The notes: generated by a model from the sequence alone, not told the origin. Positions 1 through 19,045 are shown, counted from the stretch's first letter. The stretch is DNA of 64,000 nt from Trichodelitschia bisporula (GCA_010356995.1 ML996690.1:685420-749419), one strand, 5' to 3'. Numbers and translations: made by a program.

Positions 1-1927
1 GCCTAGTGGAGCATCGTTCTCCTTGATCGTGGGGAGTCAGCTCTGGATAGCCTTTGGCAAAGACATTTGGATCTACAAGCACAGCCCGGAAAGTCGAAAT
101 GCGACGCAAGTCCTTCAAAAGCCTCTGAATCAGCAACATGTTGGCGAAGTCACATCTGGAACGGTGATTAGCAGCCAGACGGACCGCATTTACTTTGGCC
201 ACATCGATGGAAAGGTGACAATATACTCTCGTAATGACTATAGTTGTCTCGGGATTGTCAGTGTCAGCCTCTACAAGATCAGTTCTCTTGTGGGTGTGGG
301 CGAGCACCTGTGGGCGGGCTTCAACACTGGTATGATTTACGTCTACGACACGACCACGCAGCCGTGGAGGGTTCTGAAGGACTGGAAAGCGCACGAGAAT
401 ACCATTGCTGGTATCCAAGTAGATCGCACGAGTATCTGGAAACTCGACAGATTGCAAGTGGCGTCGCTCGGCACCGATGGAATGATCCGGCTATGGGACG
501 GCATGCTGACCGATGACTGGCTTGGTATTATACCTTGCAAGCTTTCATTACTACGCTAACGCCTCGCAGAGACGGATATGCAGGAACACGACGCGGAATT
601 CTGTGACTTCCGCGAAGTCACCGCGCTTGTGCTGACCTGGAATGCGGGTGCATCGAAGCCGACTAGCCTGAGACATGACGGGCGCGACGCCAATTTTTTT
701 AGAGATCTCTTTCAGTCGATTGAGCCTCCCGACATAATCGTGTTCGGCTTTCAAGAACTAGTCGACCTTGAGGACAAGAAAGTTACAGCCCGTAAGTACG
801 TTTTCTCACGGCGAAGCAATGTTCTCATCAGCACCTAGGGAGTCTTTTCAAGAGCAGCAAGAAAAAGGATGCGCTTGAGCACGAACATATGGCACACCAG
901 TACCGCGCGTGGAAGGACCATCTTACCAAGTGCCTTGAGTTGCATATGCCAGTGGATTCTCCTTACATGCTTCTGCATACTGCCAGTCTTGTCGGACTTT
1001 TCACCTGCGTCTTCGTAAAGCAGTCGGCACGACCCAATATCCGCGATGTTGAGGCAGCCAAAGTCAAACTTGGAATGGGCGGGCATTACGGAAATAAGGT
1101 ACGCAGTTGATCGTGGTTGCTTGCGCCGAATTGACGGGTACAGGGCGCGCTGATTGTCCGTTTCCTTCTCGATGACAGCTCCTTATGCTTCATCAACTGC
1201 CACCTGGCAGCCGGCCAGCGTCAGACGGTGCATCGCAACAACGACATTGCCGCCATCATGGAAGCGGCAGCCTTGCCTCCTGGCAAAGACGTGACAAGCC
1301 GCGCCGATATGTTCGTGAGCGGCGGAGATGGTACCATGATCCTAGATCATGAGATTTGTATTCTCAATGGCGATCTCAACTACCGCATAGATACCATGAG
1401 CCGCGACACTGTCATCGCAGCCGTTAAAGCGAACAACCTAGCCAAGCTTCTTGATCGCGACCAGTTGCTTCTCTCTCGCAAGAAGAACCCAGGCTTCCGT
1501 CTCCGCGCATTTCAAGAAAAGGAAATCACGTTCGCCCCAACTTACAAGTACGATGTGGGCTCTGACAATTACGACTCCAGCGAGAAGAAGCGCTCACCTG
1601 CCTGGTGCGATCGGTTGCTTTACCGCGGCATTGGCCGAATCAAGCAGGTCGACTATAAGAGGCACGAAGTGCGAGTTTCTGATCATAGGCCAGTGAGCGG
1701 TATGTTCAAACTACGCGTCAAGACCATCTCTCCCAAGCGGAGAGTAACTGCACAGGAGCGGTCTGAACAACGCTTTGAGGAGGTCCGGCAACGAATCGCC
1801 ATGGACATCAAGTACGTCTCTCCTATTGACTCATTTGAGCACACTCACTGACAGGTAAAGGCTCGATTACTTGATAAATGTATTTGGCGTGACGGTAAAG
1901 GAAGCGCAGCGGCTACTTGCCAAGTGA
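1..1927 (+). CDS. Inositol polyphosphate 5-phosphatase with upstream WD40-like region (5' truncated by window edge)
   Basis: IPPc motifs TWNAG, FGFQELVDL, NCHLAAG, GDLNYRI, PTYKYD and PAWCDRLL. Introns 525-569, 792-838, 1099-1143 and 1812-1860 (GT-AG) join the frames; stop TGA at 1925-1927. Confidence 0.92.
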
Positions 1928-2346
1928 AGAATGAACATCATATGTATGGCGGACAAGCTTCTGTAGTGAACTGGACTGGAGTGTCGGGGAAGGCTAGGTC
2001 GTTTGGCCGAACGAAGACATGATTTGCATTTGCTGGGGATTACGGATGTATGATTGCATGCATGCATGAGGCAAGGCGTTTTCTTGTTTTAACCTTCGGG
2101 AGAGCGTATTTTTTGTGTGCCCCAATGCATTCGATCATGGAGATCGTTGATTGCCCATGTTCATCAGAGCAAATGCCATGGTGAAGTGTGGGGCCAAATG
2201 CTGTGATCCGCACTCATACGTCATACCCGTTCAGACGTCACTTCCACCTCATACACGACCCCGCGCGACTTAAAGTCAGGAGCGACCCTGGTGACCTGCT
2301 AATGCAAACACCCCTCCTGCTCAAATCTCAATTGGCCCCTTTGCAT

Positions 2347-3266
2347 ATGGCAGCAAGGGGATTTAGATCGCTACATTCCACCACCCTCTTCGTATCCATC
2401 AACGCCCGTACCCCAACACATCAACTCCGCACTTCTGGATCTCGATTTCCACAGCTCGCGACCTTTCAATTCTTCCAGCGCCAGTTCATCTCCAAGACCA
2501 GAGCTATGGATCAAGACGTGGCTCGTGAGGAAACCACCGAGGGCATCAACGAGTGGAAGAAGCGCCCACCATACCGTATCCATGAAGACAACGAAAAGTT
2601 CCCTGTCAAGTACGAAGCTAGCTGCCACTGCGGGAAGGTAAAGTACCAGCTCAGTCGACAGGAGCCTCTGGACTCCAAGCTCTGTCACTGCACGACCTGT
2701 CAAAAGCAACATGGTGAGTCGCGTCGCTGATGGTGAATGGGGAAGATAAATGCTAATACGAGCTCTCGTTTTCAGCTGCTCCATTCCAGTGGGCCGCTAT
2801 TTTCCACAAGGAAGATATCAACTTCACCCACGGCCATCATAACCTCGAATGGTACGATCCGACAGAGAAGAGTGTGGACCATAAGCTGCCATGCAAGGTG
2901 CGCTGCTCGTACTGCCACAGCCCGATCATGGATGAGGGCCGCAATATGATATTGCTCTTCCCTAGCCTGATCGACCTGCAGACTGATGAGGACAAGGCCT
3001 TTTTCAAGCCTAGGTGAGCCGCTTCTAATATTTGTGGGGAAGTCATGGATAGAGGCTAATGCACGGTCTTCTTATTCGGTAATTCCAGATGCCACATGTT
3101 CTACGGCCAGCGCGTCATGGATATTCCCGACGGGCTCCCTAAATGGGATGGCCTCAGCAATGAGAGCAATCTTATTGAGGACAGCCCGCCGGATATGGTC
3201 AAGGACTTCGAACGCAAGCGCGAGGCAGAGCGGAATCAGAGGTTCGAGAAGGGGATGAATCAGTAG
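2347..3266 (+). CDS. GFA/CENP-V (Mss4-like) zinc-binding domain protein
   Basis: CHCG...CHCTTCQKQH...RCSYCHSPI...HMFY motifs; introns 2714-2775 and 3014-3088. Start is ambiguous among in-frame ATGs at 2302, 2347 and 2506. Confidence 0.85.
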
Positions 3267-5115
3267 ATGGCAAAATCGCATTCCATAGGGCTCAGTGATT
3301 TTTCTCCAGTTTTCCAGGCACCGGATAAAAACCTCTCAGCCTGCTCGTGGAGAAGAAAGACCAGGCTGTCCTCGGTGATGGTCCGAGCGTTTGGAACTAG
3401 AATAGTCTGTGGCTTATCTCTTAGAACTTCACAGGGGCACTCCTAAACACTACATCTTCATTGCGCACTGGACCGATATATTTCCTTTGAGAGCGTTGTT
3501 CGTGAAAGACCATAAGTATTTGTAGGAGACGCTTGTAAAGCTGTGAATGAATCCTATGCGTGCTGCTCACACCAAATGTCCTAAGTACGGGTATCTGCTC
3601 TCAATCGACGAGACCAAAACAGAGCATTTCTTAACTTCATGACACGCAGCTCTCTTGCAGCAGCTTGGCGCTAGTCTGTCTGTATCTCGTTTCCCTTGTT
3701 TGCTGAACATGTGGAGAGCATGCGGAGTAGCTTTTGCACCTCTGAGCCGCTCCAGGCTTACTGTACCGGTGTCAGCCTGAGAGTTACCCGTAGAGTACTA
3801 CTGCGTACCATCGTAATTTTTCTCGTCCTACTGAAAGGCACAGGAATGACTCTGTTAAGCATCGCTGGCTTGTGATTGAAGCTGGATCTCTGTGCCAATC
3901 AGCGTGATTTAATAGCAGTAGGAGAATGCTACAGCAGATAGTCGAGTCTACCAGCCACGAGACCGGAAGCTGATGTCCGCTACCCGTAGTCTTGATATCA
4001 AGCACTTCGATGCTGGATGGCGGATAAAAGTTAGGAATGGAATCAGACTTTCGCAAAAGCATATTGAACATGCGGTGCCGGATTTTCATGGTCGAATCGC
4101 ATGTACTTGGGTATCTGCTTATTTACTACGTGCTGAAGTACAGCAGTTACATCCAAAATACGGGGCGGATAGATGAGTGGATATGGTGATTATGGTTATG
4201 GAGGGCGTTTATCGTGGGTTGACAGGAGTGTAGAATAGACAGATAGGCTTGAAGCATAAGGAGATGCAAAAATCTACATCACTGTAGGCTAGATAGAGTT
4301 CCTGTCTGATCTCAGAAGGGACGTCGACAATCTTAAGAACCGGACCTTCCTATTGATCCGGCCTAACCATTGACTACCCTATGGCGGTGTCTTGGACGCA
4401 GTTGTGACAGCTGCTCGTCCCTTGGCTCGCCTGCCATTCAGAGCTGCAAACTATGTTTTGGGCACCCCACTCCAAGTTCTGAACATCACATTCACATCCA
4501 CTCCACACAACCTCCTCATCTACGATTTCTTCGAGGACTTCTTTGAAATCCACATCATCACTCAGTCTCCCTAGTTCATTTCCACTGATAGACACAGGTT
4601 AGTTTACATTCCCTCTCACTCCAATTCACTCTTCGTTTCTTTCATTCCTTCCCTTGCGATGCTGCATTAAGCGCTTCGTGATCATGCGCTTCTTCGCGTA
4701 TCGCGCCTTGTGCCATCACTCTTCTGGGCAAGGCGGGCGATACCAAGCCACACGTCGCCAGCCAGCCAACGGGGACCAGTCCGAGGGGCAAGGGCCTCTC
4801 GCTTACCTAAAGAGAGCCCCTCCCCATCGGAGCAATCTCGGCAGGCTGAAAATCAAAAGAGGCGTGCCACCTCCGTCGTGCGCTGCTCACTCTCCACCCC
4901 CATCAAGGCGGCCACCAGCGCGTTGCACGTCTCTTACCTCTCGCCTCATCAAACCTCCATCCAGACTCTCTTCTATCTGTCGCGGTAGTCATTTTAGCGC
5001 GCGGCTACTTTCTTGTCACTTGACCCGCTGCATCTCTTCACTTCTTTCGTTCTGCACTAAGCATGGCCTTTACCAGACTCAACGTGCCTTCCGGCACTCG
5101 GGTCGCCCTGGCGTA

Positions 5116-8100
5116 ATGGTTACAAGAAGCGGAAAGTTGAAGCTTACGAACAGGTCCCGACAGCCTTCCGATCACTCACCAGCGTCCGAGTCTGTCTTGC
5201 TGCGCCCTGCTCCCGACTCCGCTCCGGAGTACCAGGCACGTGCAATCCTCAAAGAGCGGAACGTTCGTGGTCATCTACAGTACCTCATCGACTGGGAAAA
5301 GGACGTCAGAACAGGCGAAGATTTCAAACCGAGTTGGGAACCAGAGGAGAACGTAAACGAAGCACTCGTCGAAGAGTGGCTGCATCGCCCCGCTCACTCC
5401 TGCTCCGAGTCCAAGGTATGTCCACAAATGCCATTAGCTCCCACTTTTTTTATATGCGACAGCACACGCTTCGACAAGCTGCCAGTTTTGGTCTGCTGTT
5501 AGTAATGTGTCGCTGGCGGAAGAAGCGTCATCTTGTCCCTTGGAGCATCAGCTCAATCGCCCGGCGCGCCAGTCTCAGCCTGGTGGTCACGTGATGCGTG
5601 ACGCACAGACCAAGCGGGCTGGCTGTTTCGCGGGCGCAAAGGACAAGGTGAAGCACCTCTTCCACAGCGTCGCCATTACAACACTCTCCCCCACATACCA
5701 CACCACCTCCAACTGCAAACACTCCCCACAGCATCAAATCTAACCTACTGATTTCGAAAAGGAACACGAACCGGTTGAAGTCCGTTCAACCCGCCAGTCG
5801 GTGTTGAATCGCCAAGGCGACGCGCGTGACCTCGTCGCAGAGGGTCGAGGCTCTGTCTCCGCCTCGTCCTCATCCTCATCCACCATCAAAGTCGTCACAA
5901 TGCCTGCGACGCGCTCTTCCACGCGCCTTAGCAGCGCATTTAAGCAGGCCTCTGCGGAGCCTGCAGAGACGTCGCGTGGCAAGGGCCGTGCCAAGGCTCA
6001 GACGAAAAAGGATCCTCAGCCTGCCGCGCAGACCGCCGGCAAGAACGGAAAGTCTGCCACACCGCAGGCCGCCGCCGCATCGTCTGGCTCTTCAAAGGCA
6101 AGCAAGGCGGCCGAGCCGGCCCTGGATGCCACCTCCGTCCTTTCGCAGGCCACCGCCGGCTCCCAGGCGGGGGCGCCCCCCGACGCCACGACCTCTCTGG
6201 AGCGCATGGAATTTGCGCTTCCTCTTCCGCTCTCCAAGCACTCACTCGACGACTACAAGAAGACGTCCGAAGGTCTAAGTGTCGGCGATCTCCTCAAAAA
6301 ATTCGAAGCTACCTTCGTCGACGACGAGCCACCGGAAGCTACCGAGGACTTTGCTAAGATTGAAGCGGCCATCGACAGTCTTCGCAAGGCGTCGATTCAC
6401 CGTGACCTGGTCGCCGCAGACGAGGAAGAGGGGGGCATCGCGAGCCACCAAGCTGAATGGGCTAAGCACAGCTCCAAGTTTCACTTCCTCGATGCCTTGA
6501 TGAAGGAACTGTCAGATGTCGAGATCCACGTCATCATCCTCTGCACATCAGTCGAGGTGATGCGCCTCGTTGAAACCCAACTCATCGGCTGCAAGGTGAA
6601 CTACCAGCGCCTTGACACCAATAGCAAGGCGGACCCAGCCAAGGTCGACGGACTTCTCCAGGCAACGATCATGCCCCACGACTGGAGCGGATCTGGAGCG
6701 AACGTTCCAAAGGCGGATCTGATTCTCACCCTCGACCACCTCTTCGACGCCTCCAATGAGAGCATCCATGCCTTGCGTCTCGCGCCCAAGAGCAACAGGC
6801 TTTGTCCGGCGATTTCCATCGTGGCTCCAAACACCATCGAGCACATTGAGTTCAATCTCGCGCCTACCTTCTCCCCGCGCAAGCGGCAGTATGTCATCTT
6901 GAAGTGTTCTTTGCGTCTGATGAGCGAGGTCTCAAAGAGCGTGGCAAAGCCGGACGAAATGGAGGCGACGACGAAGGCGGTTGCAAACTTTGTCAAATCC
7001 CACGGTACAGAAGTGGACTGGCCAAAGGGATACCGCCTAGGCCATATTGCGCACAGTGAGGCTTCTGACCTCGCTCGTGGCTTCGTCTCCATCGGGTCGA
7101 CTCCTACTAGCGAATCTGCGCGGACGCGTCGTTCGGCGAAGCGCCGCGCGACGAAGGCTCAACCCGATCCTGCGCGCAAGAAGCAGAAAATGGATAACGA
7201 GTCCGGAACCTCGAGTGTCACCGATCCGACTCCGCCGGCTGCTGAAGCTACGTCTGCTCAAGACGACCTCGTCTCGGTGAAGTTGAATCCCAACCTCGCC
7301 TCACTTCCGTCGACCAAAGAAGCGACTCCCATCTACAGCACCCCAGGAGATCAAAACGTGCCAGACAGCAGCCGATTTCTGCCTGCGGACCTTTCAGAGT
7401 TTGTTTACAAGCCCAAGACTGAGCGCACGGAGCTTGAATGGATGCGGAATCAGCTTGTGGAGTGGGAGAAGAGCGTCGAGCTCGCGATGCAACTGGTTGA
7501 CGCTGAGAAGGACCGCTCCCGGGACCTCTTGAGGGCTCGAGCTGCTGACCAGAAAAAGTACGACGACATGACCCGGGAGCTGAAGTCCACCGTGAAAGCC
7601 AATGGTCGGGTCATTGACCGGCTAACCGCTCAAAACACCAAATTGAACGAGAAAGTGGTAACTCTGACTGCGCGTTTTAACACCACAGAGAGTGATGCTC
7701 GGGGGCAGTTGCACACCATGTCGATCGAAAAGGAATCCCTTCAAACCAAAGTCACCAAGCTCGAAAGGGAACTGAAAGCTGCTCAGGATCACGCAGGATT
7801 CGTCCAGGACGTCCTTGGTAAAGCCCAAAACAGCGCCATCGAGACCAGGGATGAGAACAACAAGCTTCAGGAAGAGAACAAGCGCCTCTCACTTCTTGTA
7901 CTGAACTTGGGTGAAGAGCATTCTGTTCAATCCATGCGTCAGTTTAAGGAGACTTGCGATCGGAAGGTCAAGATCGCGGAAGAGGCTAAGAAGGATTTGG
8001 AGATGACGCTAGCTCAGCGCCATGAAGAGCTTCGGATGCTGAAGCGTGGTCACGGCGTTTCTACGCGTGCTGGTAGTGCGCCGAAAAGCCCTCACGTCGG

Positions 8101-10456
8101 TCCTGCTAGCCGTGTCGGCAGTCCAATTCCTGGTCGTCGCATAGACGCTCTCAAAGACACAGCGAACCAGTGTGTACCCTCTCGTAGATCTCCACGCTTA
8201 CTAACTCTTGCCAGTAACCGTCGCTCAGGCAAGGGCGCGGCTCAGACCACCCCGAGTAGCCTGAAAGAGCCAAAGACGGCCGCTGACAATGCCCGTCCTG
8301 CTCAAGCTAACCCTCAACCGAACATGTTGACCAAGCAGCCAGGCAATTCCCGCCAGTCCAAGTCCAGTGCAGCTACTGTCCCTGAGGCCGGCCGTGTCCA
8401 GCCTACCCCAGATGTCAAGATGTCGACGGAGGGCCCGCCTCAGAAGAAACCTCGGAACGAAACATCTGCCCGCGTCATGACTCGTCGGTCAGCTGAGCTT
8501 GCGCAGCAGCAAACGCCGGTGCAGGAGCCTGAGAAGATGGAGGGCGTCGAGTACACGGTGCCGCAACCGGCGCCTGAGAGCAATCTCAATGCTAAGGCCG
8601 CGAATCAGACGCAGATCCACCCCCTCCTGCGAGCGACACAGCCCCTGACACAGGCCCCGGCCCATCAGCAAAAGCCCAAGCCGCGCCTTCCGGAGCTGCG
8701 TCAAGATCCGAAGCCCACTGAGAAGGCTCTGGAGCCGAAGATGCCAGCGCCGAAGCCTACTCCGAAGGCGAACGCCCAAGCGTTGACTCCTCAGACCATT
8801 GCGAAGTCGACTGACGCCAACCGCGTAACCACCACACCCACTACCACTGGCACGAGTGCGCGTCCGTTTCCATGCTGCTTTCTCCCCTACGGTTGTCCTG
8901 CCGCCTTCACGTCCAAAAATGAGTGGAAACGCCACATCAGCACCAAGCACATACAACTTAATTTCTGGCGCTGCGATATGTGTGGCTCATCCCCTGGAAT
9001 CGACGTTCCGGTCTTCAACGACTTCAATCGGAAAGATTTGTTTACGCAGCATCTGAGGCGCATGCATCCATCGACTGTTCCTGTGATCAAGGACGAAAAC
9101 ACCACGCAGCCGTCAACCACCACTGCTTCTATCCCCGATGACCAGATCGCGCTGATTCAAGAGCGCTGCCATCGCCGCCTCCGTTACGCCCCTGAATCTT
9201 CCAACTGTGTCTTTTGTCCTCGCGAGTTCAGCGGAGCCAACAGTTGGGAAGAGCGCCTTGAACATGTCGGTGGACACCTGGAGCGCGACCGCAAGAACGG
9301 GTCGAACTGCATTGACGTGAGTCAATGGCGGGACGACCCGGCTCTGCGCGACTATCTGTTGCTCGAAGGGATCATCGAAGTCGATCAGCGTGGTGGTTAC
9401 CGGATCGGCGATGGTAAGCCTCGTCGCCCTGTCGACATCGAAGGCTTCCAGGGACAACCGAGTGTGGCCACCGGTGGCGATCAAGTGAAGCCTGACTCCA
9501 CTCCCGCAGCTCCCACCACCGAGCCCGCCAGCGAAGAGTCGAACGGCAAGCGTCGTCGTGGCCGCCCCCCGAAGCGGTACACAGAAGCTGAGACCGAGTC
9601 TCCGCTGCGGCACGTGATGTCCGCGACGCCTACGCCTCAGGCAATGGGCTACAACCTGAACGGCGGTCCTCCGGTCGACCCCCAAGCGCTGGCAATGCAA
9701 CAGCAACAACACATGCAAGGCAGTCATGTTCCCCCGCAGTTCATGGCGGTCCCTCCGATGCCTCCACCAAACCCAGGCGAGTCGCTGTACGACGCGCGCA
9801 CGCAGCATTACACCCGCCAGGCGCCAACTTCAGCGATGCAGTTCATTATCGCGCCGCGGCCTGTTGCCCCTTCGCCGCATTCTGCGGGTCTGCAGCGCCC
9901 GGTCGAGTACTCGGATGTTGGCAACCAGCAGCCTGTCGGCGCGGGCTCGCATCCTCCTCTAGCGCCTAAGCCGCCGACTGAAGGCTCGCACGGTGCTCGC
10001 GCGCCCATTGCCCCCCCGCAGCCCGCAATGGCTCAATTCCGCTTTGAACGGCCGCTGCAAGCGCAGCAAGGTAGCCCGGAGCAAACCACGAACGCCAATC
10101 CGGATCCGGCCCACCGCGAGGACAAGGACCCGGGCTTCCACCACCATCCGCACATGCAGAAGGTCCAGCAGCTCGAAGCCAAGCTTGGAAATCGGTCGAA
10201 GCCGTTTCCGGGAACGCCGGGCTCTGCGCCTTCCCCCCAGAGTATGGCCAATGCGCAAGCTCATGCCGCCAACAACCTCTTCAGCGTCTTTGCCGCGCCT
10301 CCGCCGGAATTTGCTACTCCGGCTCCTCCGTCACCTTTTTTGTCTTCTGCTTCAGCGGCCCCTGTCGCTTCACCTTCTGGTGAAGCGGTCGGTGGGGCGG
10401 AGGACAAGAGTCGTGGTCGGCCTGGGAAAGGATTTCATGACGTCGTCATGAGCTAG
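5116..10456 (+). CDS. Large chromatin protein: chromodomain + HDA2/3-like domain + coiled coil + C2H2 zinc fingers + AT-hook
   Basis: Exon 5116-5415 encodes YQARAILKE...YLIDW...F.PSWEPEENV (chromodomain). Intron 5416-5761 (GTATGT...CTAAC...AAG) splices in phase 0 into the frame of ORF 5801-10456. That ORF has EFALPLP...HRDL...SSKFHFL (HDA2/3-like), a heptad-rich region, CCFLPYGC...WKRHISTKH, CDMC...FTQHLRRMH, CVFC...LEHVGGH and KRRRGRPPKR. Probable in-frame intron 8170-8214. Confidence 0.8.
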
Positions 10457-11330
10457 ATGTGGCGCGATGGCGCATGTGGAGGGAAAAAGGAAAAATGGGA
10501 CGAGTGGAACGGAGCATTTGTGCAGGGAGTGTAGTGCGATGATGAGTTATAGTTATGGTTTACATTGTTTCATTTGTACGCGGGCCAGGTTCTGTACGTA
10601 GATCTGGAGCGCGCTGGCCTTCTTTGGCTTATGACTACGAGCGGTTTACTAGGCTTCCGACATGTATCTAGACTTTTGCCGCATGGATAGCCGCGGTTTA
10701 CTGGGGAGTTTTGCTCGTTCAGAGAGGCTAGGAAACTTATGGCGGTGGCTGGTGAGCGCACCTTGGTTCATGTAGGGCGGCTCGCGAAGCTCGAATAGCG
10801 TAAAAGATTTGCGGTCGTTTCATTGTTGCGGTTTGAACTGTTATTTTGCATCTTTCTCATTGCGCCATTTGAGCGTTTGCGCGTCAACCAAGGCCGCCAT
10901 CTCATCAATACGTTGAAGGATCATGGACGCTGGATTTGTGTCCCGTCGGGTGTTCATACTGGCAATTCAGTCGTGGAAAGTTCACCTGGTTTGAGATACT
11001 GATGCTCTGCGCGTGAATGTGATACATACCCCCTTGTGATCTAGACAAGGAGCATATCACTCTTAAGAAGGAACGTGATGTAATGTGCGCACGATAGAAG
11101 GAAGGTGCATAGCAGGATACTTGGTATCATTGTGTATTATTCTTGAGAGTTCCCCGACTGTCTTCCTCTTTTTGGCTTCCCCTTCAATCTTCAGTCTTAC
11201 AGTGGACTTAGCAGGTAAGGAGCCGTCGCTCCCATCAAGCTTGCACCAACTGCCTTTAGTGAGGTGCCACAACAAAGAAAGTCTTTAAAGGATAACACGC
11301 AGATCCCCAGGTCATACTGAGAGCCCTTTC

Positions 11331-12742
11331 TCAGCCCTTCCAGACAGGCGGGTGGACCACGCCATGCCCGCTGATGGGGACCTTCCGTAGCCTCGCAACT
11401 CGAATCCACCTTTCATTCTGCTCTTCCTTCAGGACATCCACCCAAGCACGTTCGCCGTCCTCTTCCAACCCCACAGCCGTATGAATCGCATTATCTCCTC
11501 TCTCCGCCCAAACCTCCGCCCTGCGCGCCATCAAATCCGCCTGGACCCTGCCCATAATCGTCTGCAACACCGTGTCCCCAACCTCCTCCTTCAATCTCTC
11601 CTTGCCTGTCGTGAAATGACGCACCAACATCCCCTGACAATCATTCCCCTGCCCAGGAAACCCATTCGCATCATCGCACGCAAAAGCCTTAAAATCCGTC
11701 TCCCGGTCATACATATACCTAACGTACTCGCCAAACGCGCCCTGCTCCGCCGGCCATTCTTTCAGAAACCTTTCACAACCGGGAAATCGCTCACCGTCGT
11801 CCGGACACGCGAGCCAGGCGCGCAGCATGGCGAACGTGCGCGGTAAATTCAGCGCGGTAATGAACCCGGCGTTCGGGTTCAAGGCTCCGAAGCGGTTGTT
11901 CGTGTAGCCGATCGGCTCACCGGCTGTGGTGAGCGAGACGTCAAGCGCCATGGCGAGGGAGGTGTTGCGTGTTACGCGCCAGCGGTTCAGGAGCCATTCG
12001 TAGGGCAGGTGCAGGTGCCGGAAGACGGCGTCGGCGTCGATCATAACCACAGCGTCGTAGTGCGGTAGTGTGTCGGCTAGCGCGGAGACTTTCGTCCACA
12101 TGTCGGCGCGAGAAGCGTTGGGATAGCGTCGCGTGTGGATGAATTTGTAGGAGTAGCCGTGGATCGTAGCTGGCGGGTTAGAGGGGAAAGCGGGTGAGGT
12201 GGGAGGGCGTACCGTAGAGGTAGTGGTTTAGCATGCCTTGCGAGACACCGGTCATGCTGGCCCAACTAAAGGTCGGGTTGAAGATTTGGTTCGCGTCATC
12301 GAGGGGCCGGGTGTCGACGTCGAGGATGAGGATCCGCTTGCCGAGCGATTCTGTCCATAGTGGGGCGCCGGTGAAATTGTACACCGTCCCATCTCTTGTG
12401 TCTGTAAAGTTTGGCTCCGTGATCAGCTGAAGAAGTGGAGCATAAAGAGCGCGGATTGCGTCGTCGAAGCCGATGGTAGACTCGACGTTGACGGTCTGAT
12501 TTGGAGCAGGTGCTGAGCGAAGGAACGAGAAGGCTGGTAACGATATGCTAGTAGGATATTCATTAGCCATCTCACGGCAAGGGTGAGAAATAAACCAACC
12601 TGAGCTGAGACAACTGCTCTCTAGTCTTCAACGTCAGTCTGGCAGATGAGAGAGAGAAGGAAACAAGCAGTGCAAGAAAAGTGACGAAGGAGAGGACGAG
12701 CAGTGTAGAATTGAGTCTCTTAAATTGCCGCATTTTCAGCAT
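11331..12742 (-). CDS. Type II membrane glycosyltransferase (GT34/GMA12-MNN10-like)
   Basis: N-terminal TM anchor; LNHYLYATIHGYSY, WTKV, DADA (DxD), NAGFI and PAEQ motifs. Introns 12548-12599 and 12170-12212 restore the frame. Confidence 0.8.
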
Positions 12743-15297: not shown

Positions 15298-16914
15298 TTA
15301 ATCAACCCGATCCTTCCCCCCCTCACTCCCTTCCTCGCCCTGCACCTCATGCACCCGCATATCAAACCCCACCCAGAACCCCTTCCCGCGCCACACAACC
15401 GTCGCGCCACCCAGCACCGCCCATGCCCAAACAGGCCACGCAAGCGCCTCGCGTCCCATCCATGCCAGCAACCACTCCGGGAACTTCCGTCTCCGCCCCC
15501 TCGCCCGCGCAAACGCAGGTGTATCAGAATCAGCATCAATCGCGCGGAACGACTGCAGGACGTTGAACAGCACCCAGTCGGCGGCCGCCCAGATACTTGT
15601 AGCCATGAGCCAGATACCGACGAACGCGAGCCAGGTCCGCGGTATCCACGCCACGAAGAAGGGTAGAGAGGTGGCGGCCCACGCGAGATACGCGCTGCAC
15701 ACGAAGCACTCGGTCCCAGGCTCGACGACCGTGGCGAGCAGGACAGTGTACTTCCGGACACGCAGCCAGCGCACGCGGCGCGCGACGTAATCAGCCACAC
15801 TCATGCGCGCCATGGGCTGCACGGCCAGATCGCCCCAGACCAGCGCATGATTGCCCCAGGGGCGCTTGTCGGCCTGGGCAGCAGCGACGGAGGCCGGGAC
15901 CGGACGCCGCCAGAGCAGGTCCCCGATCAGGTGATCCTCGCAGATATTGTGCGCGAAGAAATCGATCCCCGCGCCGTCGGTCAGCGCATCCAGGTGGCTG
16001 CGCCGGAACATGTTGCTCTTGCCGACGATGCAGGGCGCGAGGAGGACGGTATTGATCGCGGTGTAGAACTTGGCGTGCGCGGATGACATGAATGCTTCCT
16101 CGAGGCGGCCGCCGCGAGTAGTCCATAGGCCGTGGTAGGAGGAAGAGAGGACGCGGGGTGTCAGGCTGTGCGTACTTTGCGAGGCAATTTGGATGTCTGG
16201 GTCGGAGAGGAGAGGCACAACAGCCGAGTCCGCGTCGCCGTGCGGGACGGGGGCGACGGGTAGGTCTTCCATGTCCACGACGATGGGGAGCTGGTGCACG
16301 AATTTATTCGGCGGGGCGGCGGGCGTGCCGAGGAGCGTCTCGACCATGCGGCCACACACGCCCTTGCCCACCCACACGTTGCAATCTATGATCCAGACAA
16401 TATTCCCAGCTGCCTCGCGGTACGCGCGGCTCATAGTGCGGATTTTGGGGTTCGGGCCCGGGGAGTGTGTTGCCAGGCGCGGGTCTTCGGCTTCGATGTA
16501 GATGCGGGCGTTTGCTTCTGGAAAGTCGGACAGGAGCTGCTCTAGCACCGTGAGGGCGGGGTCATGCCGGTCGGCGAGGCAGAGTGAGATGATGAGTTTG
16601 GTGGCCGGGTAATTCTGCTGGAAGGTGGAGGCGAGACAGTCGTACAGGCCCGGGTCTAAGCCTTTGATCGGCCGGATTATGGTTACGGGAGGGGCATTGG
16701 GGGAGGTGGAGAGGGGAGAGGGCCGGCGCGGCGCGGAGTAGTGTCTATAGCTAGAAGAATATCAGCTTTACTGTGACTAAAGGGTTTGCGAGCTTGAGAG
16801 TGGAGCGGGGGAGAGGTAGGAGAGTGCTTACAGCTGCACGAAGCCAGTCAGCGCGACGAGCGCGACGAAGAGGCCCCAGATGAGGCAGACGTAAGCCACA
16901 ATCTGGTCAATCAT
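15298..16914 (-). CDS. GCS1: Ceramide glucosyltransferase (GT21; GCS1/HSX11-like)
   Basis: N-terminal TM; RPIKGLD, GPNPKI, WIIDCNV, GKSNMFRRS, ICEDHLIG and RRVRWLRVRK motifs; intron 16751-16831. Confidence 0.92.
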
Positions 16915-17492: not shown

Positions 17493-19045
17493 TCATCTCC
17501 GGCTATGCGTTGTGAAGTCCGAATCCGACGACCCCTTCCGCAGCTTCTCTGCGCCAACATCGCGCATCTCAACATCTTGCCCGCCTCTCCTCCTACCAAT
17601 CCCCAAGAATCCCCTTCGCGGTTTCTCCCCGCCGCCCACAGCCATCCACTCCGTCTCCGCGCGCTTCCTCGCCTTCTCCCTCCTCCAAACCACACACACC
17701 GCCAGCACCGCCAGCACCAACGCAATGCCTCCAATCACACCCCCAATCACCGCCCCTATCATCCCAGTCGCCACAAACCGCGAAATCCCCGTCCGGTAAC
17801 CATACGGCACAGGCACGCTATTCGGACAAAACGTCCGCGGCATCACGTACTTCCCATGCGGCAGCGCCTGCGCAAGGTGGAACTGCGCGCCTTCGAAATC
17901 GAGCATGAGGTACACCTCGCTCAGCCACGCCGTCGACAGGTAATACGGGCCAGTGTAGTTTGCGTTCTGGGCCTGCTCAACGGGGGACAGGTTGGACGCA
18001 TTCCGCACCACGTCCGCGGGCAACGTCACGCTGAACCCGTCGCTCAGCCGGATGGTCATGCTCCCATTGAACGGCTTCTGAAGCATGAGACTCCCGTCCG
18101 ACTCGCCCGATGCCTCGCCCTCAAGTAGATCCGCGAAGTTGCGCGTCACGCCTGCCGGCAGTCGCATCGGGTACTGGTCCGTGGTGATGCGTGCCTCGAA
18201 TGGAACGCCGCCATTCATGATGCTCCGCTTCCCCAGGCCGTGCGCCGCGTCTTCGAGCACGATGTCCGCGACTGTGACGGGGAGGTAGTCCGCGCTCTTC
18301 AGGTCCATGGGGTATGTGTGCACTGGCCCTTTGAAGCGGCCCGAGTCGTATCCGCCGAAAACGTTGGACCCGTTCACTGTCCCGCCTGCCCGGTCCATTC
18401 CTGACCCGATGTACAGGCTATATGTGCGGCCAGCGATGAGCCCGAGCTGGTAGAGACGCGCGAGCAGCGTTGATTGGCTGCCTATGCCGACGATGCCTGG
18501 GCGTGAAGACCCGGAGTTGACGAGCGAGGTCGTGAAGTTCTCCAGGCTTGTCTGCCATGCCGGCGAGGGATCGAAATAGTGTGTGTACAGGTGGAGCGTA
18601 TCCGTGCCGTAAAGCGCATCGCGGCGCGCATCTCTCGGCCGGTAATCCTCATCCGTCTTCCAACTATACCCATCAGCCTCGCCATCAAGCACCCAAACTC
18701 GGGGCACACTTACGTCGTCGAAAGATTCCCATCCACATTCCCCCCCTCCACCCTCTCACAATCCGCCACCGCACTCCTCTCACAGAAACTCCGCGCCGCA
18801 AAACTCGTCTCGTTCTGGCTCAAACTCGGCCAGAGACTCTGATTCTGCGCCGGCGAGCCCAAGCCTATAAAACTGCCATACAGGAACTCCGCCTTCGGCG
18901 ACGTGACTCGGCTGTGGATGTCGACGTAGATAGGCGGCTGCGAGCAGTTGAACCCCGCGACAGGGCGTGCAAGGCTGAGTAGTGCGGCCGCGGCGGTGGT
19001 GAGCCTGAGCGCGCTGCTGCGGGACCTAGGTCGAGGGGACGCCAT
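17493..19045 (-). CDS. Pepsin-like (A1) aspartic protease homolog with signal peptide and C-terminal TM helix; catalytic motifs absent
   Basis: Signal peptide; IGLGSPAQ, GIVGIG, YSLYIG, VFGGYDSGRF and YLMLDFE..FHLAQ fold motifs; TM IGAVIGGVIGGIALVL; intron 18664-18713. Confidence 0.8.

Follow-up and report, generated by a model that had tools for sequence, protein, structure and literature searches.

Does one fungal gene join a chromodomain and an Hda3-like scaffold to a cluster of zinc fingers and an AT-hook, and what would such a protein do? The question is raised by a locus of Trichodelitschia bisporula located in a stretch of 64,000 nucleotides (ML996690.1:685420-749419), hereafter referred to as the window; all positions are counted from its first letter. 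An earlier annotation made from the DNA alone (the sequence-only reading) proposed a self-targeting adaptor of a histone deacetylase at this site. We consider it probable, with moderate confidence, that a three-exon gene gives rise to one mRNA, which encodes a single-chain adaptor for a histone deacetylase of class II.

Gene model and transcript

The exons and introns are listed in Table 1. The frame from 5744 to 10456 contains no stops over 1570 codons. Transcript contigs were available from two public runs (X1 and X2) of one sample of one study, with the run type recorded as a guess. In contigs from both runs a skip of 346 nt with GT..AG ends removes intron 1 exactly, and exon 2 opens in frame at 5762 after the 100-codon chromo exon, as the sequence-only reading had proposed. 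Contigs of both runs also skip 45 nt with GT..AG ends at the second intron (the junction intron). This intron is in frame, has no stops and exactly separates the N-terminal from the C-terminal half. It was overlooked by the sequence-only reading, which had correctly recognized the long stop-free ORF. The deposited hypothetical protein EJ06DRAFT_314812 (P0001; 1649 aa), which is 99% identical to the window gene product, does not contain its residues.

A single contig of 5572 nt covers 4870-10832 and thus the whole gene with both introns removed. The junction is bridged in both runs by a spliced contig with at least 255 letters on each side, albeit as assembled sequence, which is no proof of single molecules. 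These data support one gene with one spliced mRNA. The 5' leader contains a uORF of 17 codons (ATG at 5063), the stop of which overlaps the main ATG. Exon 2 encodes, in this order, a disordered S/A-rich region, the HDA2-3 domain, a disordered basic/acidic region, the coiled-coil helices and the S/P-rich motif. Exon 3 encodes a disordered, low-complexity, P/A/T/Q-rich linker of ~215 aa with no stop among its codons, followed by the zinc module, the AT-hook, a P/A/Q-rich tail, the C-terminal motif and the stop codon.

Table 1. Features of the T. bisporula gene, with positions in the window and the basis of each assignment.
Feature	Position	Strand	Basis
5' leader of the mRNA	4870..5115	+	first positions of the spliced contigs, 4870 (X2) and 4902 (X1)
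Exon 1, coding part, 100 codons	5116..5415	+	sequence; same as N-terminus of annotated P0001
HP1-like chromodomain (candidate), residues 39-90 of exon 1	about 5230-5385	+	Pfam below cut-off; phmmer against PDB
Intron 1, 346 nt, GTATGT...CTAAC...AG	5416..5761	+	sequence; spliced contigs of both runs
Exon 2	5762..8169	+	ORF; agrees with P0001; covered by single contigs
HDA2-3 (Hda2/Hda3 family) alpha/beta domain, ORF residues 154-385	6203..6898	+	PF11496
Two long predicted helices, 88 and 117 residues, coiled-coil-type	7415..8047	+	AlphaFold2 DSSP
S/P-rich motif (G..TRA.S.P.SP.VGP.SR..SPIP.RRI..LK)	8054..8155	+	columns G624-K657 invariant, alignment of 4 fused proteins
Intron 2 (junction intron), 45 nt, GTGTGT...TTACTAAC...AG	8170..8214	+	sequence; contigs
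Exon 3	8215..10456	+	ORF; agrees with P0001; covered by contigs
Compact three-finger zinc module (predicted), ~190 aa	8861..9445	+	conserved C/H ligands; AlphaFold2
Fingers 1, 2 and 3 of the zinc module	~8873-8950, 8972-9067, 9206-9277	+	conserved C/H ligands
AT-hook KRRRGRPPKR	9548..9577	+	translation; alignment
Conserved C-terminal motif (relatives: RG[KR]SF[RH][ED]VVMS)	10412..10453	+	alignment; C-termini of 23 type-A proteins
3' UTR, minimum extent	10457..10832	+	X2 contig ends at 10832; X1 contig passes 10900

Domains of the two halves

The chromodomain of exon 1 remains under the curated Pfam cut-off of 25.1 bits for Chromo (PF00385), both for the exon alone (E 2.2e-4, 21.5 bits) and for the whole protein (17.1 bits), but phmmer matches exon 1 to the HP1-beta chromodomain (1ap0) in the PDB at E 3.2e-4. 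The 34 distinct PDB sequences that match exon 1 at E<=1 are chromodomain proteins nearly throughout. From the aromatic cage proposed earlier (Y, W and F), the first two residues could be retained, Y39 and W60 aligning to HP1 cage positions, while the third position aligns to D63. An aromatic residue (F/Y/W) past a 4-residue insertion is present in all seven relatives compared and might replace the third cage residue. Neurospora CDP-2 has a PxVxL-like HP1-binding motif; in the four fused proteins described below no P.V.[LIVM] motif occurs at a common position, degenerate forms being possible.

The HDA2-3 domain is well above its Pfam cut-off (PF11496, E 2.4e-22, 79.9 bits versus 27), in agreement with the HDA2/3-like domain previously placed at ~6200-7000. 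Yeast Hda3 (3hgq) is matched by sequence at E 1.5e-6. With the AlphaFold2 model, Foldseek ranks 3hgq and 3hgt on top (E 1.4e-12 to 2.0e-12, TM 0.75 on target), followed by 6z6o_D and 6z6o_C (the Hda3 and Hda2 chains) and then by SNF2 ATPase lobes; Ccq1 (7cuj) also follows the 6z6o chains (E 1.1e-9, TM 0.75 on target). The modelled domain thus has the predicted fold of the Hda3 alpha/beta domain, which resembles an inactive SNF2 lobe. Two long helices follow at residues 411-498 and 505-621 of the model of window:6185-8169, where the pLDDT of the block is mostly 70-85 in the helix region. They coincide with the coiled coil anticipated at ~7430-8045, and a coiled coil after the HDA2-3 domain is what the Hda2/Hda3 family leads one to expect. 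Together, sequence and model support an N-terminal half made of a chromodomain and an Hda3-like scaffold. Binding of a deacetylase and of methyl-lysine by this protein would be in keeping with that composition.

In the C-terminal half, three C2H2-like fingers had been proposed at ~8860-9290, and three Cys/His ligand sets are indeed found at ~8873-9277 (C10/C17/H30/H35, C43/C46/H69/H74 and C121/C124/H140/H144, numbered in the translation of window:8846-9460), each invariant or conserved in at least 90% of 50 aligned relatives. AlphaFold2 predicts a single compact unit rather than beads on a string (pLDDT 90.1, pTM 0.81). The zf-C2H2 label itself found no backing in Pfam, where no family at all was significant, PF00096 and its kin included, and zf-C2H2_jaz reached only E 0.28. 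Similarly, phmmer matched TFIIIA at E 0.1, Foldseek found nothing in the PDB at E<=0.001, and the best Z of VIA-align over 48,161 chains was 3.2. Fingers 1 and 2 superpose locally on the finger pairs of CTCF, ZBTB7A and HIC2, a weak likeness; 5t00_D fits two fingers with an rmsd of 2.5 across 69 columns, at a VIA-align Z near 3, as a local superposition only. The net charge of the module is close to zero (0 to +5 over about 200 residues). With this charge, the lack of a significant Pfam finger and the weak likeness of fingers 1-2 to DNA-binding C2H2 pairs, the fingers are no more than putative DNA binders. The module belongs to an Ascomycota family with 1110 representatives at E<=0.001, and 208 of the 250 module proteins collected are ~500 aa long with the module at the C-terminal end. 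In some members it is accompanied by PHD or acuF-like fingers.

The AT-hook is located exactly where it had been predicted. Its G449 and R450 are invariant in 17 aligned sequences, with R446, R448 and K453 conserved in at least 90%, and the RGRP core is present in 20 of 23 proteins of the AT-hook subfamily (hereafter type A). The GRP near the C-terminus, also pointed out earlier, does exist in T. bisporula, but within the conserved C-terminal motif it is peculiar to this species, as the relatives among the 23 type-A C-termini carry no GRP there. Translation and alignment support a C-terminal half with three fingers and an AT-hook, through which the window protein may bind DNA.

Fused and unfused relatives

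The combination of HDA2-3 domain, zinc module and AT-hook recurs in Verruconis gallopava (P0002, 2010 aa), Venturia effusa (P0003, 2072 aa) and a JGI protein (P0004, 1474 aa), all three with PF11496 above cut-off and with divergent linkers. The fusion is therefore clade-level and not species-specific, and the compared sequences show an architecture common to Phaeotrichales and Venturiales. The lineage-specific fusion previously suggested thus holds for a small group of related fungi, but not for T. bisporula alone. All 20 type-A module rows group to the same side of a branch supported by SH-aLRT 99, and in the unrooted HDA2-3 tree a single branch (SH-aLRT 96) parts the four fused from five unfused domains. 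ORF-level fragments of Venturia-like relatives start just before the first post-junction residues, which fits an intron at the same place as the T. bisporula junction intron.

Unfused chromo-HDA2-3 genes exist as well, as the sequences of seven metagenome loci (L001-L007) show. The chromodomain and HDA2-3 domain are present in 7/7 and the finger module in 0/7 (tblastn; profile at E<=1). They share chromodomain, HDA2-3 domain, coiled coil and S/P-rich motif with the window gene, in the same order. Downstream sequence of 3.5-7 kb is available for six of them, and in these six assessable loci, which represent about 3-4 lineages, the gene ends just past the S/P-rich motif with no finger module downstream, which bears out the earlier expectation that chromo-HDA2/3 genes end near this motif. 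L001, L004, L005, L006 and L007 have a stop 10-40 residues beyond it, and none of eight unfused ORF pieces contains a basic-flanked GRP. The position where these relatives end is that of the T. bisporula junction intron. In L005 and L007 the stop codon forms part of a hexamer, GTGAGT, that stands where T. bisporula has its junction donor (AACCA/GTGTGT in T. bisporula versus AACCAGTGAGTG).

The finger cluster had also been regarded as normally a separate gene. This agrees with the ~500-aa module proteins at large, but is unsupported for type A, since 4/4 intron-aware type-A gene models are fused and the full-length type-A proteins seen are fused only. Type-B proteins of Dothideomycetes (~500 aa; P0045 of Venturia effusa, P0049 of Verruconis gallopava) have a three-finger module ~45-55% identical to that of the window protein, located at the C-terminal end, and lack the AT-hook and the C-terminal motif. 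Both Venturia and Verruconis have them alongside the fused gene, which makes them paralogues. In sum for the sequence-only reading, the transcript contig runs on past ~8300 through the finger half, the HDA2-3 domain is matched by its HMM, and the full architecture was seen in three proteins besides this one rather than commonly in Pezizomycotina.

Origin and function of the joined protein

CDP-2 of Neurospora has an HDA2-3 domain and CHAP has zinc fingers. In the published descriptions, the Neurospora crassa chromodomain protein CDP-2 forms a bridge from HP1 to the deacetylase HDA-1 in the HCHC complex, while CHAP attaches to AT-rich DNA with its AT-hooks and aids the recruitment of HDA-1 (PMC10349943, PMC7544195). 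The window protein unites the chromodomain/scaffold half and the finger/AT-hook half in one chain, whereas CDP-2 and CHAP are described as separate proteins, and one canonical AT-hook is conserved in its family versus two described for CHAP (PMC10349943). The likeness is one of described domains and roles; a word-index search with the N-terminal half returned only the T. bisporula protein itself, and no CHAP sequence was among the 150 representatives listed for the zinc module.

We tentatively suggest, as a possibility well short of probable, that the two targeting subunits of an HCHC-type deacetylase complex, one CDP-2-like and the other CHAP-like, are joined here in a natural ‘Rosetta-stone’ fusion. 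The joining would go back to the ancestor shared by Phaeotrichales and Venturiales, in which splicing led from a donor at the site of the former stop codon to the partner lying downstream. The three-zinc module would then be an undescribed domain family whose task is to dock the deacetylase and not to read DNA. The fused form might instead be ancestral, the separate CDP-2-like and finger/AT-hook genes elsewhere resulting from fission; the window gene would then represent a retained old state rather than a lineage-specific innovation. Such a history could account for the four fused full-length type-A proteins, which occupy no fewer than two basal lines within this clade. Moreover, no free-standing type-A gene came to light, the HDA2-3 tree parts fused from unfused domains by one unrooted branch, and the GTGAGT at the stop of L005 and L007 could be a relic donor that is read through. 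However, with a TGA stop at this site, chance alone would produce a donor-like hexamer in roughly one case in 64. Unfused forms occur in about 3-4 lineages, and Neurospora is described with CDP-2 and CHAP as separate proteins (PMC10349943). Type-A clusters are also few (11 of the best 150 representatives exceed 450 bits), and the named type-A members among these 150 come from two related orders only. We therefore regard an ancestral fusion as rather doubtful.

It is unlikely, in our view, that the scaffold has captured, as its finger half, a sequence-specific DNA-binding domain of the transcription-factor type, which would send the deacetylase to particular genes instead of AT-rich heterochromatin and would be unrelated to CHAP. 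The large Ascomycota family of the module, its mostly ~500-aa members named ‘C2H2-type domain-containing’, the PHD or acuF-like fingers joined to some of them and the local superposition of fingers 1-2 on known finger pairs all agree with this idea. The near-neutral charge and the single compact unit of the model argue against it, as does the conserved AT-hook that marks type A, a minor-groove element of low specificity. Furthermore, the zinc finger of CHAP is reported to bind the Arb2 domain of HDA-1, not DNA. As to an artefact, i.e., two neighbouring genes joined by chance ORF continuity or by annotation, the low-complexity linker would allow it, and the frame alone cannot separate one gene from two because the junction intron keeps the frame and contains no stop. 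Yet the junction is bridged by spliced contigs in both runs, the linker runs for ~215 codons without a stop, three other proteins with divergent linkers are joined in the same way, and the Venturia-like fragments start at the junction, as expected with an intron there. This reading is close to refuted and highly improbable.

In the single-chain adaptor that we favor, the N-terminal half would correspond to a free-standing chromodomain/Hda2-3 protein in its full extent, a kind among which Neurospora CDP-2 is counted, with an HP1-like chromodomain having two of three cage aromatics and with coiled-coil helices of about 210 residues. By analogy with yeast Hda3, the Hda3-like domain and the coiled coil would hold the deacetylase. 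The AT-hook, perhaps aided by the fingers, would tether the complex to AT-rich DNA, like the AT-hooks of Neurospora CHAP, and the chromodomain, or bound HP1, would connect it to methylated H3. Saccharomyces cerevisiae Hda3 and Hda2 (3hgq, 6z6o) have the same alpha/beta domain, as judged from Pfam, from sequence and from fold, followed by a long coiled coil. The solved Hda3 chains consist of these two parts only, while the window protein is ~3 times longer; yeast Hda2 and Hda3 are not known to carry a chromodomain, fingers or an AT-hook. The HDA2-3-like fold predicted for the N-terminal half is also seen in Schizosaccharomyces pombe Ccq1 (7cuj), a telomere protein whose matched chain has no chromodomain, fingers or AT-hook and which is linked to the Clr3 deacetylase complex.

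Gene structure and transcript

Trichodelitschia bisporula belongs to the Dothideomycetes (Phaeotrichales). One of its genes joins an N-half with a chromodomain and an HDA2-3 domain to a C-half with a zinc module and an AT-hook, and the coordinates of its features are collected in the table below. Exon 1 (100 codons) starts at an ATG and is followed by GTATGT, while the in-frame start of exon 2 was placed by a CTAAC branch signal and AG. The frame that follows is free of stop codons over 1570 codons, and the sequence-only reading overlooked a 45-nt intron within it. This intron is revealed by its splice signals (GTGTGT, branch signal TTACTAAC, AG) and by the deposited protein EJ06DRAFT_314812 (1649 aa, deposited as ‘Chromo domain-containing protein’), which shares 99% identity with the translated frame but misses the 15 frame residues after ‘...ALKDTAN’. 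The intron is in frame, contains no stop codon and lies precisely between the N-half and the C-half.

The transcript data consist of two small public runs (X1 and X2) from one sample of one study, whose kind is recorded as a guess and not as RNA. Their contigs, a contig not being a single molecule, were compared over window 4600-10900 and show two GT..AG joints, one skipping 346 nt (5416-5761) and one skipping 45 nt (8170-8214). Run X2 has a contig of 5572 nt that alone spans 4870-5412, 5759-8169 and 8215-10832, and a contig of 5172 nt in X1 also crosses the junction between the halves. Since both introns are missing from the contigs yet present in the genome, the contigs are best read as derived from cDNA. 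Thus, in this sample, spliced contigs bridge the junction, as expected for the one-transcript gene initially proposed and not for separate transcripts of the two halves.

The mRNA leader contains an upstream ORF (uORF) of 17 codons, which ends in a TAA that shares bases with the main start codon (TAATG); termination could be coupled to re-initiation here. Run X1 also contains two small contigs within intron 1 (5438-5612 and 5673-5788, with a depth of 3.2 and 46, respectively), the second of which is unspliced across the acceptor at 5761/5762. They could reflect intron retention or a start site within intron 1, and the latter could give an isoform that lacks the chromodomain and begins at the in-frame ATG 5901.

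The neighbouring ORFs are of housekeeping type and unrelated to this gene. Their products include Exo_endo_phos2 phosphatase-like, GFA-domain, glycosyltransferase-21-like (Glyco_transf_21) and aspartyl-protease-like proteins. No chromatin-related gene was found among them.

Coordinates of the gene, its features and the neighbouring ORFs in the window
Feature	Position	Strand	Remark
uORF	5063-5116		17 codons
Exon 1	5116-5415	+	chromodomain
Intron 1	5416-5761	+	346 nt
Exon 2	5762-8169	+
Stop-free frame	5744-10456	+	1570 codons
HDA2-3 domain (PF11496)	6203-6898	+	E 2.4e-22 (Pfam)
Modelled helices	7415-8047	+	88 and 117 residues
S/P-rich motif	8054-8155	+
Junction intron	8170-8214	+	45 nt
Exon 3	8215-10456	+	C-half
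AT-hook KRRRGRPPKR	9548-9577	+	core conserved
Neighbouring ORF	1135-1848		housekeeping-type, unrelated
Neighbouring ORF	2185-2727		housekeeping-type, unrelated
Neighbouring ORF	11334-12227	-	housekeeping-type, unrelated; 298 aa, no Pfam match
Neighbouring ORF	15301-16761		housekeeping-type, unrelated
Neighbouring ORF	17496-18755		housekeeping-type, unrelated

Domains of the two halves

The N-half is a member of the Hda2/Hda3 family; of the four defining features of this family three were assessed, and it has all of them. Besides the Pfam match, phmmer against the PDB retrieved yeast Hda3 (3hgq) at E 1.5e-6. An AlphaFold2 model of window 6185-8169, built from 14 rows (mean pLDDT 67, with 75-90 in the folded parts), shows an alpha/beta domain (residues 1-303) followed by disorder and two helices. 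Its top Foldseek match is again Hda3 (3hgq, E 1.4e-12, TM 0.75 on the target), followed in this order by two chains of the Hda1 complex in 6z6o (Hda3 and Hda2), Schizosaccharomyces pombe Ccq1 and SNF2 ATPase lobes. For the HDA2-3 domain (model m0bda4c1875aa, window 6185-7093), the telomere protein Ccq1 (7cuj, S. pombe) is the best structural neighbour outside the Hda proteins, with an E-value of 1.1e-9 and ahead of the SNF2 ATPase lobes. In the ESM Atlas, which provides leads only, the N-half lies near ‘HDA1 complex subunit’ clusters with representatives of 756, 1384 and 1172 aa.

The chromodomain is a divergent member of its family. It scores 21.5 bits, which is under the Pfam cut-off of 25.1. 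Among solved structures, 34 distinct sequences match it at E ≤ 1; almost all belong to chromodomain proteins, HP1-beta being the best (E 3.2e-4). Y39 and W60 align with positions of the aromatic cage; the third position is occupied by D63, ahead of a four-residue insertion. All seven aligned relatives have an aromatic residue three places before a conserved ‘PSW’, and judging from this alignment it might replace the third cage residue. Methyl-lysine reading is therefore possible, though not backed by a complete cage.

The C-half begins with a linker of 215 residues, rich in P, A, T and Q, which precedes a zinc module of about 190 residues at window 8861-9445. Three Cys2-His2 ligand sets are invariant or near-invariant in this module across 50 aligned sequences, and none of the Pfam zinc-finger families matches it significantly. 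AlphaFold2 models it as a single compact unit (pLDDT 90.1, pTM 0.81) and its charge is nearly neutral. Foldseek against the PDB gave nothing at E ≤ 0.001, only local superpositions of two fingers on CTCF-type arrays. A comparison with 48,161 representative chains (VIA-align) reached a best Z of 3.2. Neither comparison found a global counterpart, which does not make the fold new. The AT-hook is followed by a tail rich in P, A and Q and a conserved C-terminal motif. A GRP in this motif was considered as a second AT-hook and rejected, because it is not conserved and occurs in the motif of T. bisporula alone.

The Venturia-like proteins P0003, P0010 and P0013 have a degenerate hook behind the fingers, with RGRA for RGRP. 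P0003 (Venturia effusa) has an extra canonical hook, KRRGRPPAR, at about residues 581-595 in a disordered region ahead of the HDA2-3 domain. The AT-hook thus seems able to move along the chain.

Distribution and origin of the fusion

The fusion is not specific to T. bisporula. The HDA2-3 domain, coiled coil, S/P-rich motif, zinc module and hook follow one another in the same order in proteins of Verruconis gallopava (P0002, 2010 aa) and Venturia effusa (P0003, 2072 aa) and in a JGI protein (P0004, 1474 aa), the gene model of the latter being without a chromodomain. The search with the whole ORF considered up to 8000 candidates and is not exhaustive. A word-index search with the N-half, under the same cap, gave back only the query protein, probably owing to a candidate list swamped by coiled-coil words, and is uninformative on relatives.

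Unfused counterparts of the N-half were found as well. After alignment of the N-halves of all four fused proteins, a scan of metagenome contigs from JGI gave 226 pattern matches, and seven loci (L001-L007) were confirmed among them. These represent about three to four lineages: L001 equals L003, is near-identical to L002 and, like them, shares 88% identity with L004; L005 and L007 share 94% identity; and L006 stands alone. All seven encode both the chromodomain and the HDA2-3 domain. The finger module was detected in none of them by tblastn or a type-A profile at E ≤ 1 (six-frame ORFs of at least 40 aa), with 3.5-7 kb of downstream sequence available in six loci and L002 cut off too soon to tell. 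In L001, L004, L005, L006 and L007 a stop codon occurs 10-40 residues past the S/P-rich motif, which bears out for these loci the statement of the sequence-only reading that chromo-HDA2/3 proteins usually end near this motif; the 756-aa ‘HDA1 complex subunit’ cluster, a lead only, fits this as well. The next genes in L007 are unrelated and on the opposite strand, and none of eight unfused ORF pieces contains a basic-flanked GRP. In a quick HDA2-3 tree of nine rows, one branch separates the four fused from the five unfused rows (SH-aLRT 96), a weak result given the very long branches of T. bisporula and P0004.

The zinc module itself is widespread. In a search with the finger region, restricted to proteins of 410-1306 aa, 1845 of 5728 candidates matched at E ≤ 0.001, and a profile of 17 close C-halves returned 1110 representatives at E ≤ 0.001 in 1.84 billion. 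In the ESM Atlas (leads only), the finger half groups with Ascomycota ‘C2H2-type’ clusters. We sorted 250 collected proteins, all with the module, by a simple layout rule into 23 of type A, which have either the C-terminal motif or an AT-hook at most 200 residues beyond the module, 208 of type B, which are about 500 aa long and end with the module, and 19 others. Type-A clusters are few: among the 150 best listed of the 1110 representatives, 11 exceed 450 bits and the next one scores 340. A quick module tree was made of 53 rows, comprising 20 type-A sequences (three fragments were left out), the 23 named type-B sequences out of 208 and 10 of the 19 others; all 20 type-A rows fall to one side of a branch whose SH-aLRT is 99. 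Venturia effusa and Verruconis gallopava each encode a type-B protein beside the fused one, which makes types A and B paralogues.

Four type-A sequences come from gene models that seem intron-aware, each of them a fused protein. The remaining 19 of the 23 are short jgi, lgn and ena calls of uncertain intron-awareness. At least four of these (P0007, P0008, P0010, P0013) have a few odd residues right before a ‘QGRR’, the sequence found just past the junction in P0002 and P0003. Judged from protein sequence, these entries seem to be ORFs truncated by an intron at the junction position. The short proteins were therefore rejected as proof of free-standing genes.

The junction bears on whether two genes fused or one gene split. 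The unfused proteins of L005 and L007 end with ‘...LLRNQ*’, encoded by AACCAGTGAGTG (about 8960-8990 in L005 and 6632-6660 in L007), and the aligned place in T. bisporula (window 8165-8175) reads AACCA|GTGTGT, where the junction intron has its donor. The unfused stop and the donor of the fused gene are thus at most one codon apart, and the stop sits within a GTGAGT hexamer. Such an arrangement fits a fusion in which a cryptic donor at the old stop was spliced to a downstream gene, and fits equally well a relic donor that remained after fission. As the coincidence comes from a single lineage and, with a TGA stop at this place, has a chance expectation of about 1 in 64, we treat it as a lead for either.

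Proposed working and the zinc-module family

By analogy with yeast Hda3, the alpha/beta domain and the coiled coil would scaffold a class II deacetylase, and the fused chain would join this scaffold to a tether for AT-rich DNA. The protein would then work like the Neurospora HCHC subunits CDP-2 and CHAP together, neither half being assigned as an orthologue. In CHAP, the zinc finger is reported to bind HDA-1 at its Arb2 domain. Should the zinc module be the counterpart of this finger, it may dock the enzyme rather than bind DNA, with which its near-neutral charge and compact fold would agree.

The fusion is natural and clade-level and makes the functional coupling of two targeting subunits testable, although we infer every functional step. 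The clade includes Venturia (apple and pecan scab fungi) and Verruconis (opportunistic pathogen). If the finger/AT-hook half is the CHAP counterpart, evolution has run the tethering experiment: two HDA-1-recruiting subunits that are apart in Neurospora would act as one chain across the clade. This would argue that the two subunits act as a unit and would offer a compact single-gene handle to study or perturb heterochromatic deacetylation in these fungi. The fused proteins are already public as hypothetical proteins; among the papers searched, none joins HCHC and CDP-2 with Dothideomycetes and none reports a CDP-2/CHAP gene fusion.

The zinc module represents a large, uncharacterised Ascomycota family without a Pfam family or a solved global counterpart, and offers a well-defined target for work on its structure and binding. 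It also occurs together with a PHD finger in Pseudocercospora (P0233), with an acuF-like finger region in Lophium (P0094), and at the N-terminal end of proteins of 750-890 aa (P0185, P0192) that share a conserved C-terminal helix of their own.
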